Shown: positions 2,911 to 9,532, counted from the first letter of the stretch. The stretch is 11,093 nt of DNA from an archaeon (GCA_036170245.1 JAVHOV010000023.1:1-11093), one strand, 5' to 3'. Translations and numbers: made by a program. Notes: generated by a model not told the origin, from the letters alone.

Positions 2911-4404
2911 TTATTCTTTTTTAGGAGTTTCTTCTTCTTTTCTTTCTGGCTTCATTTGTGGGAAGAAGATTACATCTCTTATTGTTGAAGAATTTGTTAG
3001 AACCATTATTAATCTATCAATTCCAAGTCCCATTCCGCCTGCAGGAGGCATTCCGTATCCTATTGCATCCAAGAAGTCTTCATCCATCGGAACTGCTTCG
3101 CCTTTTGCTCTACCCTGGTCTTTTTGGTCTTCGAAGAATCTTCTTTGCAAAATTGGATCATTTAGTTCAGAGTAACCATTGCAAATTTCGTGACCGTTAA
3201 TGTAACCTTCTGTTCTTTCAATTAGTAAATTCAAATCTTCTCTTGAGGGTTTACATAAAGGAGTTGTTTCTTTTGGATATTCAGTTACCCAAGTTGGCTG
3301 GATTAATTCGGCTTCGCAAAAGTGTTCAAATAATTCTACAACAACAAGACCCCATTTTTTGTCTTCTTCATTAATTTCAACTTTTTCTCTTGCAGCAATT
3401 TCAAGTAATTCTTCAAGAGTCATTGTCTTAACTGCCCTGCCAACTTTTTCACTCAAAGCATCAAGCATTTTGATTCTCTTCCAAGGAGCTTTGAGATCAA
3501 TTTCTTTTCCTTCGTAAGTAACTTTAGTTGTTCCGTTAACTTTTATTGCAACATACTCAATCATTTGTTCTGTTAGAGAAATAATTCCGTTCAAGTCAGT
3601 GTACGCTTGGTAGAATTCCGACATTGTAAATTCAGGGTTGTGAGTTTTATCAACATCTTCATTTCTAAAATTCTTACAAACAGTGTAAACTTTATCAAAT
3701 CCACCAACTAACAATCGTTTCAAATATAATTCGGGAGAAATACTCAAGAAGAAAGTTGATTTCCAAGCATTTGAAACAGTAGTGTAGGGTCTAGCACTTG
3801 CTCCACCATAAGTTGGTTGAAGAACAGGAATTTCTACATCCAAAAATCCTTTATTATTCAAAAATTCTTTCCAAGCTTGAATAATTTTTGTTCGCTTAAT
3901 AAAAACTTCTTTTACTTCAGGATTCATAATTAAATCCAAGTATCTTTGTCTTTGTCTGATTTCAATATCCTGTAAACCGTGGAATTTTTCAGGAAGAGGC
4001 AAAATACTTTTGCACAAAACTTCTAAAGTGTTAACCATTATTGAAAGTTCTCCTCTTTGAGTTCGGTAAACTTTTCCATGAGTTCCAACAATATCCCCTA
4101 AATCAATTGCTTCAAGAAGTTTGAATACTTCGCCAGGAGTATCTCCTTTTTTTAAGAAAAATTGTATTGTCCCTTTAGTATCAGCAACTTTTAAAAAAGC
4201 AATTGCTCCAAAAGAACGTTTAGCCATTACTCTTCCTGCAACATTAAATTCAGGACCAAATTCTTCATTCTTTAAAGAAGTAAATTTTTCTAATAATTCT
4301 GTAGAATAAGCGTTAACATCAAAACTATATGGATAAGGGTTAATTCCTGAATCAACTAATTTCTGCAAATTATCCTTCTTTGCTTTTACTAAATCGTTAT
4401 CCAT
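2911..4404 (-). CDS. lysS: Lysine--tRNA ligase, class II
   Basis: OB-fold N-terminus (GINPYPY, VAGRVMAKRSFG, LPEKFHGLQD, RQRYLDLI), GGASARP, motif 2 NFRNEDVDKTHNPEFT, motif 3 YGMPPAGGMGLGIDRL. ATG 4404 chosen as start; the track starts at TTG 4419. Confidence 0.97.
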   Translation of the reverse strand: MDNDLVKAKKDNLQKLVDSGINPYPYSFDVNAYSTELLEKFTSLKNEEFGPEFNVAGRVMAKRSFGAIAFLKVADTKGTIQFFLKKGDTPGEVFKLLEAIDLGDIVGTHGKVYRTQRGELSIMVNTLEVLCKSILPLPEKFHGLQDIEIRQRQRYLDLIMNPEVKEVFIKRTKIIQAWKEFLNNKGFLDVEIPVLQPTYGGASARPYTTVSNAWKSTFFLSISPELYLKRLLVGGFDKVYTVCKNFRNEDVDKTHNPEFTMSEFYQAYTDLNGIISLTEQMIEYVAIKVNGTTKVTYEGKEIDLKAPWKRIKMLDALSEKVGRAVKTMTLEELLEIAAREKVEINEEDKKWGLVVVELFEHFCEAELIQPTWVTEYPKETTPLCKPSREDLNLLIERTEGYINGHEICNGYSELNDPILQRRFFEDQKDQGRAKGEAVPMDEDFLDAIGYGMPPAGGMGLGIDRLIMVLTNSSTIRDVIFFPQMKPERKEEETPKKE

Positions 4405-4500
4405 AAAATAAACTTCCAAGGAATGAATTAAAAGGCTTACCTTAAAAGCAAAAAAATCATCAAGAATATATTTTTAACCAAATAGAAAGCATACTTAGGT

Positions 4501-5265
4501 ATGCAACATCAAGTAAAAGGAAGAGCAGAAATGCTTGCAAAATTCAATGCAAAGAGAAAAGCAACACGAAAACCAGAACACTATGATGATGCAATTCTTC
4601 TTGGCTCAAAAGGCGGACTTACCAGGAAAAAAATCCAGCAGGTTATCGGAAGAATGAAGAAAAAAAGAGAGAATTATTTAGGACAAGAAATTCCAACCGT
4701 CACATCTTCAGACAATATGCTATTTACTGGGTCAAAAGCAACTGCAACAGATGTTGCAACAAGACTCTCACTAAAATATCTAATGAAACCACTCAAAGCA
4801 ATGAAACTCAGTCAGGAATCTCTTTTGGCATTTGAACGATTGCTTCTTGCAAGAGGCCAAATAATAAAAGGAACAAATATTAGTTTAAGACCACCACAAG
4901 AGTTTTTGATGCTTGACTTGATAAACTCTTTTGGAGAAGACGGATACAGAAAAGCCCAAAAAGTTTCAGAGAAACTCACTCAGAGAGGACACAATATACA
5001 AAGACTGGCCATAAAATCAAAACTTAATGAGTCAGATGTTTTCTATAATGTTCCCCCAAGGGCAGGGATAGCGCAGTCATACTTAGGCATTAGTAAAGAA
5101 AGTTTTATAGCAAATTTTCCGTCAACCTTAAGAGAAAGAGAACTTGAACTTGAGCAACTTAAAAAAGAAAATATTTCAAACAAAGAAATTTTCATAAAAA
5201 TGCTTGAAGATCAAGTAAAAAAAGCAAGGAAAAGTTATATCCTGTTCAGGCAAAACAACATGTAA
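4501..5265 (+). CDS. Hypothetical basic protein
   Basis: 254-aa ORF divergent from lysS, with TATA-like TTTTTAAC at 4471 (30 nt upstream). K/R-rich; no domain recognised. Confidence 0.75.
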   Translation: MQHQVKGRAEMLAKFNAKRKATRKPEHYDDAILLGSKGGLTRKKIQQVIGRMKKKRENYLGQEIPTVTSSDNMLFTGSKATATDVATRLSLKYLMKPLKAMKLSQESLLAFERLLLARGQIIKGTNISLRPPQEFLMLDLINSFGEDGYRKAQKVSEKLTQRGHNIQRLAIKSKLNESDVFYNVPPRAGIAQSYLGISKESFIANFPSTLRERELELEQLKKENISNKEIFIKMLEDQVKKARKSYILFRQNNM

Positions 5266-5306
5266 GCTTAAACTGTATTAAATATTACACTTATTCTTTA
5301 ATAGTA

Positions 5307-5313
5307 TTTAATA
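5307..5313 (+). promoter_or_regulatory. Putative TATA box for the trp leader transcript
   Basis: TTTAATA starts 30 nt before ATG 5337, the same 30-33 nt spacing seen for genes at 4501, 8861 and 10144. Confidence 0.45.
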
Positions 5314-5336
5314 ATCTACATGAATGAATGTATGTT

Positions 5337-5384
5337 ATGAAAGTTAATTTGGTTGAAAAAGTTGTCTGGAGTCCTTTCATCTAA
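5337..5384 (+). CDS. Putative Trp leader peptide 1, MKVNLVEKVVWSPFI
   Basis: Hand-translated ATG 5337 to TAA 5382-5384, single TGG at 5367-5369. Positioned like a leaderless or short-leader ORF relative to the TATA-like box. An in-frame ATG at 5328 is an alternative start. Confidence 0.45.
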   Translation: MKVNLVEKVVWSPFI

Positions 5385-5481
5385 TTATCGACTCACCAGG
5401 TCTGGAATCCAGGCAATCAACCAAAGAAAAATTAATCACACTTACTTCTCTGACTCAAGGATTAAAACTTTTCACTGGTGA
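5353..5481 (+). CDS. Possible 42-aa upstream ORF ending in His-Trp-stop
   Basis: TTG 5353...CAC TGG TGA 5481 gives MKKLSGVLSSNYRLTRSGIQAINQRKINHTYFSDSRIKTFHW. No clear SD, so translation is uncertain. Confidence 0.25.
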   Translation: MKKLSGVLSSNYRLTRSGIQAINQRKINHTYFSDSRIKTFHW

Positions 5482-5509
5482 ACACTATATTTTACTCTAA
5501 AAATATTTG

Positions 5510-5582
5510 GGGAGAATAGTGTAGTGATAACACGAATAAGTTTTTTACTTATTAGTCCAAGGTTTGATTCCTTGTTCTCTTA
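5510..5582 (+). ncRNA. tRNA-like cloverleaf element (non-canonical tRNA, pseudo-tRNA or tRNA mimic)
   Basis: Acceptor GGGAGAA/TTCTCTT; T8A9; D arm GTGT-AGTGATA-ACAC; G26; anticodon arm AATAAG-TTTTTTA-CTTATT; variable loop AGTC; T arm CAAGG-TTTGATT-CCTTG; discriminator A; no encoded CCA. Confidence 0.85.
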
Positions 5583-5600
5583 AATTTTGGAGATGAAAAA

Positions 5601-5639
5601 ATGGAAAATAAAAAAAGTGAGTTAGCCTGGCTACAATGA
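5601..5639 (+). CDS. Putative Trp leader peptide 2, MENKKSELAWLQ
   Basis: SD-like GGAGATGA at 5589-5596, ATG 5601, TGG at 5628-5630, TGA 5637-5639. Ends 19 nt before the trpB2 ATG. Confidence 0.5.
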   Translation: MENKKSELAWLQ

Positions 5640-5658
5640 TTTAGGCAAAAAAGTAGTA

Positions 5659-6897
5659 ATGTTAGAAAAGAATGAAATACCAACGCACTATTACAATGTG
5701 CTTGCGGATCTACCTTTTGAATTTCCGGCACCACAAGGAGATTTGGCAATTTTAGGAAAAATATTTCCTAGCGAAATATTACAACAAGAAATGAGTTCTG
5801 AAAGATATATCAAGATCCCTCATGAAGTAAGAGAAATTTATGCAAAAATTGGAAGAGCAACTCCACTACAAAGAGCAGATAATTTAGAAAAAGCTTTAGG
5901 GACAAATTGCAAAATATTTTTCAAAAGAGAAGACACAACTTTGCAAAGAAGTCACAAAATCAATACTGCACTCGCACAAGCTTATTATATCAAAAAGGCA
6001 GGATTCAAAAATGTTACAACAGAAACAGGAGCAGGCCAGTGGGGTAGTGCATTATCTCTTGCATGCAAATTATTTGATTTGAATTGCACAGTGTACCAAG
6101 TGAAGTGCAGTTATGACCAAAAACCTGCAAGAAGAACAATAATGAAATTATATGGGGCAAAAGTAATTGCTAGTCCCAGCGACACTACAAAAATTGGGAG
6201 GGAAATGCAAAAAAAGTTTCCAAACACTCCAGGGAGTTTAGGGATGGCTATTGCTGAAGCTGTTGAAATTGCAAAAGAAAATGAAGATACTGTATACAGT
6301 TTAGGAAGTGTGCTCAATCACGTTTTGATGCACCAAACTGTAATCGGACAAGAAACAAAAAAGCAACTGGAGAAGATTGGTGAAAGCGCTGATATAGTAA
6401 TTGGGTGCGTTGGAGGAGGAAGTAACTTTGGAGGAATCGCTCTGCCCTTTATTCCTGACAAATTGAATGGAAAAGAAATAGAATTAATTGGAGTGGAACC
6501 AAAAGAAGTTCCAAGCATGACAAAGGGAGAATACAAGTATGATTATGGAGATACGGGAAAACAAACTCCACTTTTGAAAATGCATACTCTGGGTTGCGAA
6601 TTTGTTCCAGAAGCAATTTACGCAGGCGGATTAAGATATCATGGAGTTGCTCCAATAATTTCAGCACTAATTGATCACAACTTAGTGAAAGCAGAGAGCT
6701 ACTCTCAAGAAGAGTGCTTTTTGGCAGCAAAATTATTTGCTGAAACAGAAGGAATAATTGCAGCACCCGAATCAAGTCACGCCCTAAAGAGTGCAATTGA
6801 ACATGCCAAGAAAAATGACGGCAAAACAATTGTATTCAATTTAAGCGGAAACGGAATACTGGACTTGGCTGCATACGAAAAAGTGCTTGGACTGTAA
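5659..6897 (+). CDS. trpB2: Tryptophan synthase beta chain, type 2 (TrpB2 / TrpB-like PLP enzyme)
   Basis: IPTHYYNVLADLP N-terminus, PLP-lysine motif SHKINTA, TTETGAGQWG, GSLGMAIAEA, YSLGSVLNHV, CVGGGSN, YAGGLRYHG and APESSHA are all characteristic of TrpB2. Confidence 0.95.
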   Translation: MLEKNEIPTHYYNVLADLPFEFPAPQGDLAILGKIFPSEILQQEMSSERYIKIPHEVREIYAKIGRATPLQRADNLEKALGTNCKIFFKREDTTLQRSHKINTALAQAYYIKKAGFKNVTTETGAGQWGSALSLACKLFDLNCTVYQVKCSYDQKPARRTIMKLYGAKVIASPSDTTKIGREMQKKFPNTPGSLGMAIAEAVEIAKENEDTVYSLGSVLNHVLMHQTVIGQETKKQLEKIGESADIVIGCVGGGSNFGGIALPFIPDKLNGKEIELIGVEPKEVPSMTKGEYKYDYGDTGKQTPLLKMHTLGCEFVPEAIYAGGLRYHGVAPIISALIDHNLVKAESYSQEECFLAAKLFAETEGIIAAPESSHALKSAIEHAKKNDGKTIVFNLSGNGILDLAAYEKVLGL

Positions 6898-6906: not shown

Positions 6907-6971
6907 GGCACATGAATCAAGAATAATTAAAAACACTAAAGTGAATGATATGTATGAGAGAAAGTGAAAAA

Positions 6972-8078
6972 ATGACTGAAAAAATAATCATTGACCCGTG
7001 GGGAAAAGAACTCGTTGAAGATTACACTAGATTGATTAAGGAATTCGGAATGAAAGAGTTTGATGCAAGCATGTTTCCTAATCCAAATTTACAAATGAGA
7101 AGAGGAATAAATTTTGGAGGAACTGATCTTGAACAAATTTCTACTGCAATCCAAAACAAAAAACCATTTTATGCACTAAGTGGAATAATGCCTTCAAGCG
7201 AAAAAATACATTTAGGAACTGAAACTGTAATTCAAAATATAAAATACTTTCAGGATCATGGAGCAAGAACTTACGTTTTAATTGCTGATGTAGAATCCCA
7301 AGCAACAAGAGGAGTTCCAATTGAAGAAGGAAAAAAAAGAGCAATGGAATTTCACATCCCTGCATACTTAGCACTTGGACTTGATATTGAAAAAACAAAT
7401 TTTTATTTACAAAGCGAAAATAAAAAAGTATCAAACCTTGCAGTAATTGCCTCACAAAAAGTAACTGAAAATGAATTTAGGGCAATATATGGATCACTTC
7501 ATCCTTCGAAAGTAATGAGTGCATTTACTCAAATGGGAGATATACTCTACCCACAGCTTGAAGAAAAAATGCCGGGAGTAATTCCTGTAGGAATTGACCA
7601 AGCACCGCACATTAGAATGGTAAGGGACGTTGCACGAAGACTAAAAGCTGATTACTCCTTCTTCCTACCTAGCGCATTATACAACAAATACACTAGCGCA
7701 CTTGATGGTTCATTTAAGATGAGCAAAAGCGGGGAAGAGAATGCAAAAATAGAAATCCCTGAAAAAGATCTCAAGCTCTTAGAGAAAAAAATAAACAAAG
7801 CCCTAACAGGCGGAAGACCAACTAGAGAAGAACAAAGAGCAAAAGGCGGAGAAATATCAAAATGCGTTGTTTACGAATACTGCAAAAATCACTTCATCAA
7901 AGACGATAAAGAATTAAAGGAAATGTTTGAAGGATGCGTCGGAGGAAAGAATTTGTGTGGGGAATGCAAAGCAAAATACGGAGTTCCTTTTGCAACTAAG
8001 TTCTATGAAGATTTCAACATTAATTTCTCAAAAGCAAAAAAACAAATACAAAACGGAAAAGTAAAGTTTGTTGAATGA
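6972..8078 (+). CDS. trpS: Tryptophan--tRNA ligase, archaeal type
   Basis: IDPWG...DYTRLIKEFG N-terminus, HIGH-like HLGT, DILYPQL, IPVGIDQAPH, KMSKS, ALTGGR, C-terminal CGECK. ATG 6972 chosen as start; the track starts at 6945. Confidence 0.95.
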   Translation: MTEKIIIDPWGKELVEDYTRLIKEFGMKEFDASMFPNPNLQMRRGINFGGTDLEQISTAIQNKKPFYALSGIMPSSEKIHLGTETVIQNIKYFQDHGARTYVLIADVESQATRGVPIEEGKKRAMEFHIPAYLALGLDIEKTNFYLQSENKKVSNLAVIASQKVTENEFRAIYGSLHPSKVMSAFTQMGDILYPQLEEKMPGVIPVGIDQAPHIRMVRDVARRLKADYSFFLPSALYNKYTSALDGSFKMSKSGEENAKIEIPEKDLKLLEKKINKALTGGRPTREEQRAKGGEISKCVVYEYCKNHFIKDDKELKEMFEGCVGGKNLCGECKAKYGVPFATKFYEDFNINFSKAKKQIQNGKVKFVE

Positions 8079-8088
8079 AGGGAAAAAT

Positions 8089-8814
8089 ATGAGTAAAAAC
8101 AGAACACATAATCCAAATAGAGTTCCTCAAAAATTTTATGAAAAAACAACTTTAAATCCAAAAAGAGAAGTGATGCAAGAACAAGTCAAAATACTAAGAA
8201 TTGTTGACTCCATAATGCCAATACAAGCAAAAACTGTAAGCGACGCAAAAACAGGGATAGATTATGTTTTCTTCAACACAAGTATTGACAGAAAATTCGG
8301 ATTCTACAATAATGGAGAAGACTCAATAAAGGTAAGAATGAAAGATGGACAATTAGTCAATAGTTCTGATTACACTTTAGTAATGCATAAAGACAGAATA
8401 GAAATCTTGCCAACACAAAGAATCCGAGACTATGTAAGAAAACATCCTAAAAAAATACAGTTTGATCCAAAATTGCCCCAAAGAAAAGGCAGAGGCGGAC
8501 AAGTAATGTTTGATCAAGCAAGAGTAACTCTAAGCGATGTATACAAACAGGAAAAATGTATTCCTGCAACTGTTACAATCCCCTTATTAAAAATAGCAAG
8601 AGGAGAAGCTAAATTAAAAATGAGAGAGGCTGCCAAATTACAAGAACTTATGAATAGAGCCTTAACTAGAATAAGATTACTAAATGGAATAGCCCAAATA
8701 AAACTTAATAAGTCTAAAAAACACTTTTATGAACAATTCTTAAAAAGAAAAAAAGCTACGATAATAAAACCAACTAAAAAAATCATAAAGCGAAAAATAT
8801 TAAACCAGCGATGA
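8089..8814 (+). CDS. Hypothetical protein with PD-(D/E)xK-like motif, paralog A
   Basis: ATG 8089 after purine-rich GAAGGG. Motif D-x3-GIDY-x5-SIDRK; very basic C-terminus; clear similarity to the next gene. Confidence 0.7.
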   Translation: MSKNRTHNPNRVPQKFYEKTTLNPKREVMQEQVKILRIVDSIMPIQAKTVSDAKTGIDYVFFNTSIDRKFGFYNNGEDSIKVRMKDGQLVNSSDYTLVMHKDRIEILPTQRIRDYVRKHPKKIQFDPKLPQRKGRGGQVMFDQARVTLSDVYKQEKCIPATVTIPLLKIARGEAKLKMREAAKLQELMNRALTRIRLLNGIAQIKLNKSKKHFYEQFLKRKKATIIKPTKKIIKRKILNQR

Positions 8815-8860: not shown

Positions 8861-9532
8861 GTGAAATCAATAAGTGGTTTAGATTTTACTTGCCTATTGC
8901 CAAACGAAACAGAAACTGAGAAAATACCACGCAAAAAATCTTATCTTTTCAAATACAACCAGCAAAAAATAAACCCTAATTGTTTAAAACAAAATCAAAT
9001 GAGAAAAGAATTGCTCAATTTTATTCCAAAAGAAATGTCTTCTGTCAAAGACAGCGAATTTGGGATTGATTACTACTACAAAGGAATTTCAATTGACCAA
9101 AAATTCTGCTTTGGGGAACTCGGAAAAGACACAATAAAAATAAGAGTAAGAAGAAAGGAGCTATTGAACAAATCAGATTGGACAATGATGATTAATGAAA
9201 ACAGAGAAATAATATTTTTCAAGACAAAGAAACTGAAAACATTTGTAAAACGCAACTGGAGCCTTGTACAAAAGAACTTTGTTGAACAAAAAAGAGCTTA
9301 CTCAGAGCATTACGTCAGAATAAAGGATTTTTGCAGGATAGAACAAGTTGAACTAATAAAAGGAAAAATGGAAACTGATTTTTTTATTGACACAATGAAC
9401 AAAATAGTTCATGAAAATGAAAGTGAAATGATTGAGGAAACTATTCAAACTAACAAAACCATTGTTAATTACACAAAAAGAATATGCTTTGAGCCACAAT
9501 TAGTAAAAATTTTCCAGCAGATTTTTGTCTAA
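8861..9532 (+). CDS. Hypothetical protein with PD-(D/E)xK-like motif, paralog B
   Basis: GTG 8861 with TATA-like TTATAAA at 8831. Motif D-x3-GIDY-x5-SIDQK. The true start may be further downstream. Confidence 0.7.
   Translation: MKSISGLDFTCLLPNETETEKIPRKKSYLFKYNQQKINPNCLKQNQMRKELLNFIPKEMSSVKDSEFGIDYYYKGISIDQKFCFGELGKDTIKIRVRRKELLNKSDWTMMINENREIIFFKTKKLKTFVKRNWSLVQKNFVEQKRAYSEHYVRIKDFCRIEQVELIKGKMETDFFIDTMNKIVHENESEMIEETIQTNKTIVNYTKRICFEPQLVKIFQQIFV

Follow-up and report, generated by a model that had tools for sequence, protein, structure and literature searches.

The trpL leader of Escherichia coli is reportedly a leader-peptide attenuator. Leaderless poly-Cys small ORFs of mycobacteria have also been presented as attenuators, according to a preprint (bioRxiv 10.1101/834739), and published control of archaeal trp genes is the work of DNA-binding proteins, the transcription regulators being TrpY in Methanothermobacter and Tar in Thermococcus (PMC6737238). 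With regard to recoding, the release factor gene prfB (RF2) carries a CUU_U shift site and an internal Shine–Dalgarno (SD) sequence, and the 2016 review that describes it states that starvation-specific products of hungry-codon shifting had no known examples and that archaeal +1 shifting was predicted only in a virus (PMC5009743). A 2021 review gives fucA1 of Sulfolobus as the only reported archaeal -1 frameshift (PMC8211752). As for RNA processing, t-elements resemble tRNAs in structure and are substrates of RNase P and tRNase Z, as at the 5' end of Haloferax 5S rRNA (PMC4326828). Our own literature search, in which subscription journals were thinly covered, found no archaeal attenuator or amino-acid-sensing frameshift.

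The trp device analyzed here, a leader and gene start upstream of and within an archaeal trpB2, would be prfB-like and attenuator-like in its working and is a member of neither class. As in prfB, a short zero-frame ORF precedes a product encoded in the +1 frame (25 loci), and the site shares with the prfB site (PMC5009743) an internal SD-like stimulator, CUU as the commonest P-site codon, and a slow A-site codon followed by C. Unlike in prfB, the A site is not a stop but a sense codon for the pathway product (Trp, Ile, His, or Pro), and the sensed quantity would therefore be charged tRNA; the device is archaeal, occurs on several genes and also inside a leader, and its P site tolerates GCC, CTC, GTT, and ATT. 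In the window itself, the P-site codon is GCC rather than CUU (CTT in 10/25 orthologues), and the gene is trpB2 rather than a release factor. The yeast sites of Ty1 and ABP140 (CUU_AGG_C) and of Ty3 (GCG_AGU_U) also combine a slow A-site sense codon with landing on a Gly codon, and Ala P-site variants occur among them, but they rely on rare tRNAs and are not presented as amino-acid feedback in that source.

Like bacterial attenuators, the locus has a uORF with cognate codons before a biosynthetic gene and, like the mycobacterial small ORFs, this uORF is leaderless and a stalled ribosome would block a shut-off structure. However, the stalling Trp codons are reached only after a predicted +1 shift, and the blocked structure is an anti-tRNA helix. 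In contrast with trpL, there are no tandem Trp codons in the initiating frame, where the first uORF has a single one, multiples being found only in the +1 frame; nor did we find a terminator hairpin in the folds or an Rfam Trp_leader match. The tRNA-like fold lies upstream with its acceptor and T arms kept and is predicted to be able to set a 5' end by cleavage, as t-elements do, but those are not described as switchable in PMC4326828, whereas folding here is proposed to be under the control of a stalled ribosome, with an mRNA as the product. Finally, the programmed frameshifting predicted here would affect an archaeal chromosomal gene, as in fucA1, which differs by shifting -1 on a slippery heptamer without amino-acid logic.

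Source of the DNA and Sets of Loci

The window, i.e. the whole stretch of 11,093 nt that was analyzed, is contig C23 of an 867-kb genome that is 86% complete. Because the named relatives of its TrpS (at most 87% identity) are recorded as 'Candidatus ainarchaeum sp.' or Diapherotrites, we take the host to be an Iainarchaeote. Positions 5200-6000 are free of mismatches and indels across contigs of four runs from one study, these contigs not being independent since they are possibly the source of the window DNA. Neither blastn nor nhmmer found a second copy of the leader in the genome, and no PF00290 match (trpA) was found in it at its 86% completeness.

From the trpB2 loci, we dropped 12 duplicates above 97% identity as well as those without the N-terminus or without 120 nt of upstream DNA. 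The set of 22 leaders consists of 15 from the window's family clade (the family-level leaders) and seven from four other families; it omits L006 (without a Trp uORF), L033 and L034 (truncated), and five loci with another gene before trpB2. Since the loci are kin, leader and locus counts are not independent trials and the P values are overstated.

Elsewhere in the window, positions 1599-2854 carry two small toxin-antitoxin-type pairs (a PemK/MazF-like gene next to an ORF of 80 aa, and an HVO_A0114-like HTH gene next to DUF7718), 2911-4419 on the minus strand encode a class II, bacterial-type lysyl-tRNA synthetase even though the host is an archaeon, and the ORFs at 4501-5265, 8068-8814, and 8861-9532 have no Pfam or NCBIfam match.

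A Leaderless uORF and a Concealed +1 Frame

The leader and the genes behind it comprise the following features.

5274..5290 (+): conserved box forming an imperfect inverted repeat, some 15 nt 5' of the TATA box
5305..5314 (+): TATA-like box
5337..5384 (+): ORF-A, leaderless uORF of 15 codons, its single Trp codon at 5367-5369
5348..5425 (+): helix S1:S2, which covers the first Trp codon, 9+9 bp, 5348-5370 with 5408-5425, with a 5-nt bulge
5364..5370 (+): shift site 1 (+1, predicted), GTC followed by TGG
5368..5481 (+): ORF-B, the +1 frame from the ORF-A Trp codon, 37 codons, with Trp codon 5476-5478 and stop 5479-5481
5473..5497 (+): S3/S4, the complement of the 5' half of the cloverleaf, under and 3' of the second Trp codon
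5510..5582 (+): cloverleaf, a decayed extra tRNA-Trp copy with acceptor, D, and T arms kept and a U-rich anticodon loop (TTT)
5589..5595 (+): SD of the real trpB2 start, in the default fold paired to the 3' strand of the tRNA
5601..5639 (+): ORF-C, zero-frame TrpB2 N-terminus, 12 codons, resembling orthologue N-termini
5616..5631 (+): predicted +1 shift cassette 2, with an internal SD-like sequence, GCC 5625-5627 (P site), TGG 5628-5630 (A site), then C
5626..6897 (+): trpB2 body in the +1 frame, a 423-aa open frame matching TIGR01415 (604.6 bits, above cut-off)
6945..8078 (+): trpS (tryptophan-tRNA ligase), 47 nt 3' of trpB2

The initial annotation of this DNA had rightly described 5266-5658 as lacking any long ORF: the plus strand has none of at least 60 aa, and a 65-aa minus-strand ORF (5552-5749) overlaps the stretch. 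The TATA-like box that it had pointed out is aligned and kept in 14/14 leaders, and the ORF-A ATG sits downstream of it at leaderless-start distance. The inverted-repeat box is present in 15/24 trpB2 loci, every one of them within the window's family clade, and in the window's own genome a box of the same type, with similar spacing, precedes cimA, the aro operon, and an ABC-ATPase gene, which makes it a candidate operator of a general amino-acid regulon. It resembles the TRP box of TrpY, whose gene is reportedly preceded by a two-codon Met-Trp ORF. As with TrpY and Tar, this would be archaeal trp control with a conserved box 5' of the TATA box; unlike here, those are cases of protein-DNA control only, and the present box also stands before cimA and aro genes. 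The ABC-ATPase gene just mentioned (G000 C35:12751) is leaderless behind the same box and a TATA box, and is perhaps an amino-acid-regulated transporter.

Across the 15 family-level leaders, the ORF-A ATG keeps a fixed distance from the box and the TATA box, and its distance to the Trp codon is 15, 18, 21, 30, or 33 nt, in frame throughout, alignment gaps between the two being multiples of three. A uORF of the ORF-A type also occurs in the seven loci from four other families, so that conservation of in-frame uORF TGG codons among orthologues, which had been suggested as a check, was found in both groups; the exception is L006, which has a tRNA remnant and no Trp uORF. In the other families, shift site 1 reads CTT, GTT, or CTC before TGG.

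The +1 frame that begins at this Trp codon is open for 32-78 codons in 22/22 leaders, while the -1 frame is open for 1-43 codons. Its peptide sequence is not conserved, yet it has 1-3 Trp codons within nine codons of its stop in 22/22 leaders, and the first of these terminal Trp codons lies 27-42 nt 5' of the tRNA or its mimic in all 18 loci that have one. The probability of the ORF-B pattern in shuffled sequence has a median of 0.003 per locus (range 0.0015-0.054). In L091, L092, and L094, the ORF-B frame is without any start codon. In the family-level leaders, a TTG in the ORF-B frame lies directly 5' of the shift site, which is a point against the shift reading; this TTG is a by-product of the invariant word. 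The ORFs 5337-5384, 5353-5481 (ORF-B read from its TTG), 5601-5639, and 5593-5625 had been listed as separate short ORFs with a single Trp codon apiece: all are present as described, but the reading frames suggest that the first two (ORF-A and ORF-B) are likely one unit joined by a +1 shift at the Trp codon.

Related arrangements were observed at other places. In L085, L088, and L089, a ParB-like gene that lies upstream of trpB2 has an ORF-A-type uORF and its +1 frame in front of it; the last Trp codon of the ParB-gene leader appears by eye to be a second shift site in L085 and L088, and over L085, L087, L088, and L089 the ParB-like gene lies behind one or two Trp-codon +1 sites in series. This gene is possibly a serine kinase supplying phosphoserine. 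In the Asgard loci L068, L069, L070, L077, L080, and L081, a Trp uORF lies about 225 nt before trpB2, behind TGTACA boxes, and its +1 frame, open for about 28 codons, ends ORF-B-like on Trp plus two codons in 5/6 of these close kin. The bacterial-type loci L037, L040, L041, and L065 show the same succession of a tRNA-Trp, a uORF that contains Trp, and trpB2; a T-box-like word seen by eye in L037, L041, and L065 was not confirmed at the Rfam gathering threshold.

A Predicted Shift Inside trpB2

The strongest SD before trpB2 leads to the ATG at 5601, which is one base off the frame of the enzyme. That frame does not open until 5626, after TAG 5623-5625, across GCC-TGG. What had been taken for an SD-led Trp leader peptide (5601-5639) is thus the N-terminus of TrpB2 itself, matching in-frame N-termini of close orthologues such as L027 (body 93% identical) and L004. 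The ORF at 5593-5625, put forward as a further module, turned out to be incidental: its ATG lies inside the SD, it makes use of the ATG-G of the real start, and it is found in 3/15 family-level leaders.

This gene-level site is shared by 25 dereplicated trpB2 loci from Iainarchaeota and Aenigmatarchaeota (the latter phylum name resting on the record of L063), all of which require +1. Their P-site codons are CTT (10), GCC (8), CTC (5), GTT (1), and TTT (1), and C directly follows TGG in 22/25. An internal SD of -3 kcal or stronger is present in 25/25 loci, the window's being weak (-3.9), against 15% of 12,929 background codons. The energies refer to an assumed anti-SD 9-mer, and the spacing of the internal SD equals that of the E. 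coli prfB site. Between the Trp codon and the anchor, the spacing takes nine values among the 25 loci, every one of them in the +1 register, and 13/25 loci have no in-frame ATG within the first 10 codons. By contrast with these loci, which require the shift, 11 trpB2 loci with a strong SD are in frame, L027 included, and the TrpB2 tree shows six or more changes of frame state.

At 5659, 20 nt 3' of the ORF-C stop, lies an in-frame ATG with a weak SD (-2.4), which is present in 8/8 GCC-type loci, so that reinitiation could bypass the gene-level shift. Moreover, the window's P-site codons GCC and GTC re-pair poorly after a +1 slip, unlike the CUU of RF2. Whereas the initial annotation had named trpB2 and trpS jointly as the target, trpS directly follows trpB2 in only 10/24 loci, and trpB2 is therefore the constant target; in the window, the gene order suggests that the two are probably co-transcribed.

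A tRNA-Trp-Derived Cloverleaf and a Computed Fold Switch

The tRNA-like cloverleaf noticed at the outset was recovered both by ARAGORN (anticodon TTT) and by Rfam (tRNA, 49.4 bits, E 2.5e-8) at 5510-5582; otherwise, the Rfam search that had been recommended returned nothing convincing. The best non-self nhmmer match of the leader is the tRNA-Trp of its own genome at C35, at a weak E of 0.82, and this genome holds both that normal tRNA-Trp and a tRNA-Lys(TTT) (C6). At the orthologous position, an intact tRNA-Trp(CCA) stands in nine loci and a copy with a damaged anticodon arm in eight, the window included; by eye, L084 and L090 have tRNA-like minihelices in its place and 4/22 leaders have no tRNA. 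In G018, the leader tRNA-Trp is intact and a second tRNA-Trp exists elsewhere. Because the orthologous copies are intact or anticodon-damaged, we interpret 5510-5582 as an additional copy of tRNA-Trp in which the acceptor and T arms have survived longer than the anticodon; its D and T loops are altered, and its anticodon loop does not match tRNA-Trp identity. An identity as tRNA-Lys was rejected by orthology. RNase P RNA, tRNase Z, and aCPSF1 are all encoded in the genome. As side observations, the T arm and acceptor strand are partly duplicated in L005 and L030, after the tRNA and just 5' of the SD, and the functional tRNA-Trp is preceded, at a distance of about 135 nt, by a duplicate of the tRNA-Trp 5' half with hairpin-rich sequence behind it (L113:270-477; G000 C35:1569-1776).

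As a whole, the leader region folds more stably than expected (z -2.8, 0/100 shuffles as stable). The 18-bp helix drawn over the first Trp codon in the initial annotation was reproduced as S1:S2 (z -3.7, 0/200 shuffles equally stable). Its core of 10 pairs is 95% paired in 14 sequences with five one-sided changes; no two-sided covariation was found in the core among these 14, the 5' strand showing no variation, and compensatory changes outside it were noted only by eye. S1 pairs better with its own S2 than with those of other loci in 14/16. The hairpin said to begin at the second Trp codon and to compete with the cloverleaf was borne out as well: it spans roughly 5472 to a point inside the tRNA 5' half (z -2.4, 3/200 shuffles) and covaries with the cloverleaf across orthologues. 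In the default fold, S3/S4 pairs with the tRNA 5' half in 14/16 loci; it pairs better with its own than with other tRNAs in 14/16 (permutation P 5e-5, inflated by kinship) and disrupts the acceptor stem to a greater extent than its shuffled versions in 16/16.

A simulated ribosome on the last Trp codon brought the acceptor stem above 0.5 in 12/18 loci, as compared with 3/18 without it, and from 0.00 to 0.74 in the window, 6/18 cloverleaves staying unfolded in this ON simulation. In the intact RNA, the same ribosome raised access to the SD weakly (0.08 to 0.20 in the window), an increase found in 17/22 leaders in one computation and 12/22 in another. An in-silico cut at the 3' end of the tRNA raised SD access in 16/16 loci and from 0.04 to 0.95 in the window, this being a comparison without a length-matched control. 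Direct occlusion of the SD by S3/S4 was rejected, natural segments hiding it no better than shuffles (8/16). A relay through S1:S2 and S2:S3 was likewise rejected as the link: blocking S1 left the fold in place, the coupling was small and mixed (in L005, 2.1 kcal against the relay), and S2:S3 pairing was unspecific. No intrinsic terminator (hairpin plus U tract) appeared in the leader folds. The spacer is poor in G and rich in U and C (11% G and 37% U, 16 loci); the window's spacer has no U4 tract, 5/16 loci being without one.

Comparable Sites in Other Biosynthetic Genes

Sites of the same kind occur in other amino-acid genes. To describe them, we used a rule with no amino-acid term (an upstream ATG, a +1 frame into the gene, an internal SD, and a P-site codon ending in two pyrimidines). 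For trpB2, its A-site codon is Trp in 25/43 loci, with another residue in one and no call in 17; for cimA, it is Ile in 21/30; for hisG, His in 11/16 and Leu in one; for proB, Pro in 3/17; and for aro, the rule made a single call, Ser, in 11 loci. Over these five gene sets, the A-site codon is that of the pathway's own amino acid in 60/63 calls, with a rule that was written after the sites were known. Within the window's own genome, two of 41 cassette-like words have the shift architecture, those of trpB2 (Trp) and cimA (Ile); an earlier genome-wide shift scan, which required an SD-led ATG, had missed cimA because cimA is leaderless.

The cimA gene (citramalate synthase) begins with a leaderless 8-codon ORF and requires a +1 shift at GCC plus an Ile codon (L110:330-356; G000 C11:3329-3355). 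This shift form is found in 21/22 family loci and in 0/8 others, several of which have the gene in frame behind Ile-containing leader peptides. In the in-frame cimA loci L136-L142, from other families, short leader peptides carry the SD-like word of the cassette, placed two codons 5' of an Ile codon, which suggests that attenuator and frameshift forms may interconvert.

The hisG gene requires a +1 shift at a His codon in 13/16 loci, the remaining three being masked, truncated, or from another family; its site in L144 (G000 C14, near 18530, minus strand) has the internal SD one codon farther upstream. The proB shift at a Pro codon is found in the 3/17 loci called above. A proB leader peptide (L112:325-399; G000 C7:48824-48898) was seen to end in Pro-Ala-Pro, its end being complementary, by eye, to the proB SD region. 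With respect to the aro operon, a leader peptide with aromatic codons is present in 11/11 family loci and looks like a classical attenuator in an archaeon, judging from its layout; in L111 (G000 C31, near 17790-17710, minus strand), a run of Phe/Trp/Tyr codons is followed by a hairpin and a U-rich tract.

Proposed Mechanism and Rival Explanations

From the observed frames, their conservation, the identity of the codons, and the complementarities, we infer that the leader is probably a ribosome-read Trp sensor in which Trp codons are starvation-triggered +1 sites at two levels. We hold with good confidence that Trp-codon +1 shifting, dependent on Trp supply, would be the sensor. Processing of the cloverleaf as the output, which builds on a computed fold switch, has in our view roughly an even chance, because the SD opens weakly in the intact RNA, the in-silico cut frees it, and the enzymes are encoded. 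On this basis, a ribosome would start leaderless at 5337 and, when Trp is plentiful, stop at 5384, whereupon S1:S2 would re-form, S3/S4 would hold the 5' half of the cloverleaf, and the tRNA 3' strand would be left on the trpB2 SD, which is the OFF state. When charged tRNA-Trp is scarce, the ribosome would pause at TGG 5367, shift +1, and read ORF-B; a second pause at TGG 5476 would cover S3/S4 and enable the cloverleaf to fold, and RNase P and tRNase Z would excise it to give a trpB2-trpS message with a free SD. Translation of ORF-B may also shield the G-poor spacer from aCPSF1/FttA termination. At the second level, a start at 5601 would yield TrpB2 only through a +1 shift at GCC-TGG behind the internal SD, in the manner of RF2 (CUU-UGA). 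The idea from which the analysis set out, a Trp-sensing cis leader of unfamiliar architecture, is partly supported: it would hold as regards a conserved leader read by ribosomes, and direct sensing of tRNA is unsupported, with no Rfam T-box match in the window and 11 related loci.

Among the rival explanations, the main one retains frameshift sensing and replaces the output by transcription termination, ORF-B translation across the spacer blocking aCPSF1/FttA and the tRNA fold being secondary. The spacer composition, the presence of an aCPSF1 gene, the retention of ORF-B by the four tRNA-less leaders, and the weak SD effect in intact RNA speak for it, but the missing U4 tracts do not, and it leaves unexplained both the covariation of S3/S4 with the tRNA 5' half and the 27-42 nt spacing between Trp codon and tRNA kept in 18/18 loci; we regard it as unlikely, if well worth considering, and the two outputs can coexist. 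A more distant possibility dispenses with shifting altogether, ORF-A then being a single-codon attenuator acting through an S1:S2 / S2:S3 relay and TrpB2 being made by reinitiation at ATG 5659. This would fit the conservation of S1:S2, the repetition of the S1 word in S3 (by eye), the ATG itself, and the fact that the cloverleaf, once S1 is blocked, gains 3.2 kcal in the window and at least 0.4 in 9/16 loci. However, an S1 block alone raises the acceptor stem in 0/16 loci, S2 pairs better with its own S3 in only 6/16 (P 0.6), and such a scheme accounts neither for the open ORF-B frame with its terminal Trp codons (22/22) and the constant +1 register, nor for the 13/25 loci without an early in-frame ATG, nor for the cognate codons of cimA, hisG, and proB, which makes it improbable.

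That the frameshifting is programmed but constitutive, setting a low expression blind to amino-acid supply, is rather less probable still: the Ty1 site CUU_AGG_C, one base different from the site here, shifts about 40% unaided (PMC5009743), but a constitutive device needs no match between A-site codon and pathway product, which is what 60/63 rule calls show. We consider it highly improbable that uncharged tRNA-Trp is bound as in a T-box, with the S1 UGG as specifier and the S3 UGGN as acceptor-binding bulge. By eye, S1 shows complementarity to the anticodon loop of tRNA-Trp, and UGGUGGC, a frequent sequence of S3, resembles the T-box core, yet Rfam gives no T-box match for the window and 11 related loci, the S1 UGG is buried in a helix, both UGGs are kept in a reading frame that tRNA binding would not need, and many loci have UGGC, which mismatches an A discriminator. 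As to an ordinary origin in a tRNA-Trp pseudogene undergoing decay, mini-ORFs arising by chance, and a trpB2 that is broken or mis-assembled, the lost anticodon, the other tRNA-Trp in the genome, and the frequency with which frameshifts mark pseudogenes would agree with it; but the same break at a Trp codon recurs in 25 loci, from two phyla, whose enzyme bodies are intact, the contigs of four runs agree, and the ORF-B pattern has a median shuffle probability of 0.003 per locus. This reading is already contradicted by the conservation data, and we give it next to no credence.

Implications

Returning to the starvation-triggered shifting that we favor, a broader reading, which we hold tentatively and at slightly under an even chance, is that Iainarchaeota and Aenigmatarchaeota may use a protein-free amino-acid code built from a portable cassette (internal SD, slippery codon, and cognate hungry codon). 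The trp leader would then be a serial AND gate with excision of a tRNA-Trp: the first shift would lead into a hidden stall ORF, the stalled ribosome would let the domesticated tRNA-Trp gene fold and be excised, thereby activating the mRNA, and the second shift would give the enzyme. With its length of about 16 nt and its swappable codon, the cassette could act as a modular amino-acid sensor. In these lineages, wrong starts have likely been annotated for trpB2, cimA, hisG, and some proB genes. If the proposal is true, these archaea would offer a natural case of programmed hungry-codon frameshifting as metabolic feedback, together with ribosome-mediated amino-acid control in archaea and tRNA processing as a regulated output.
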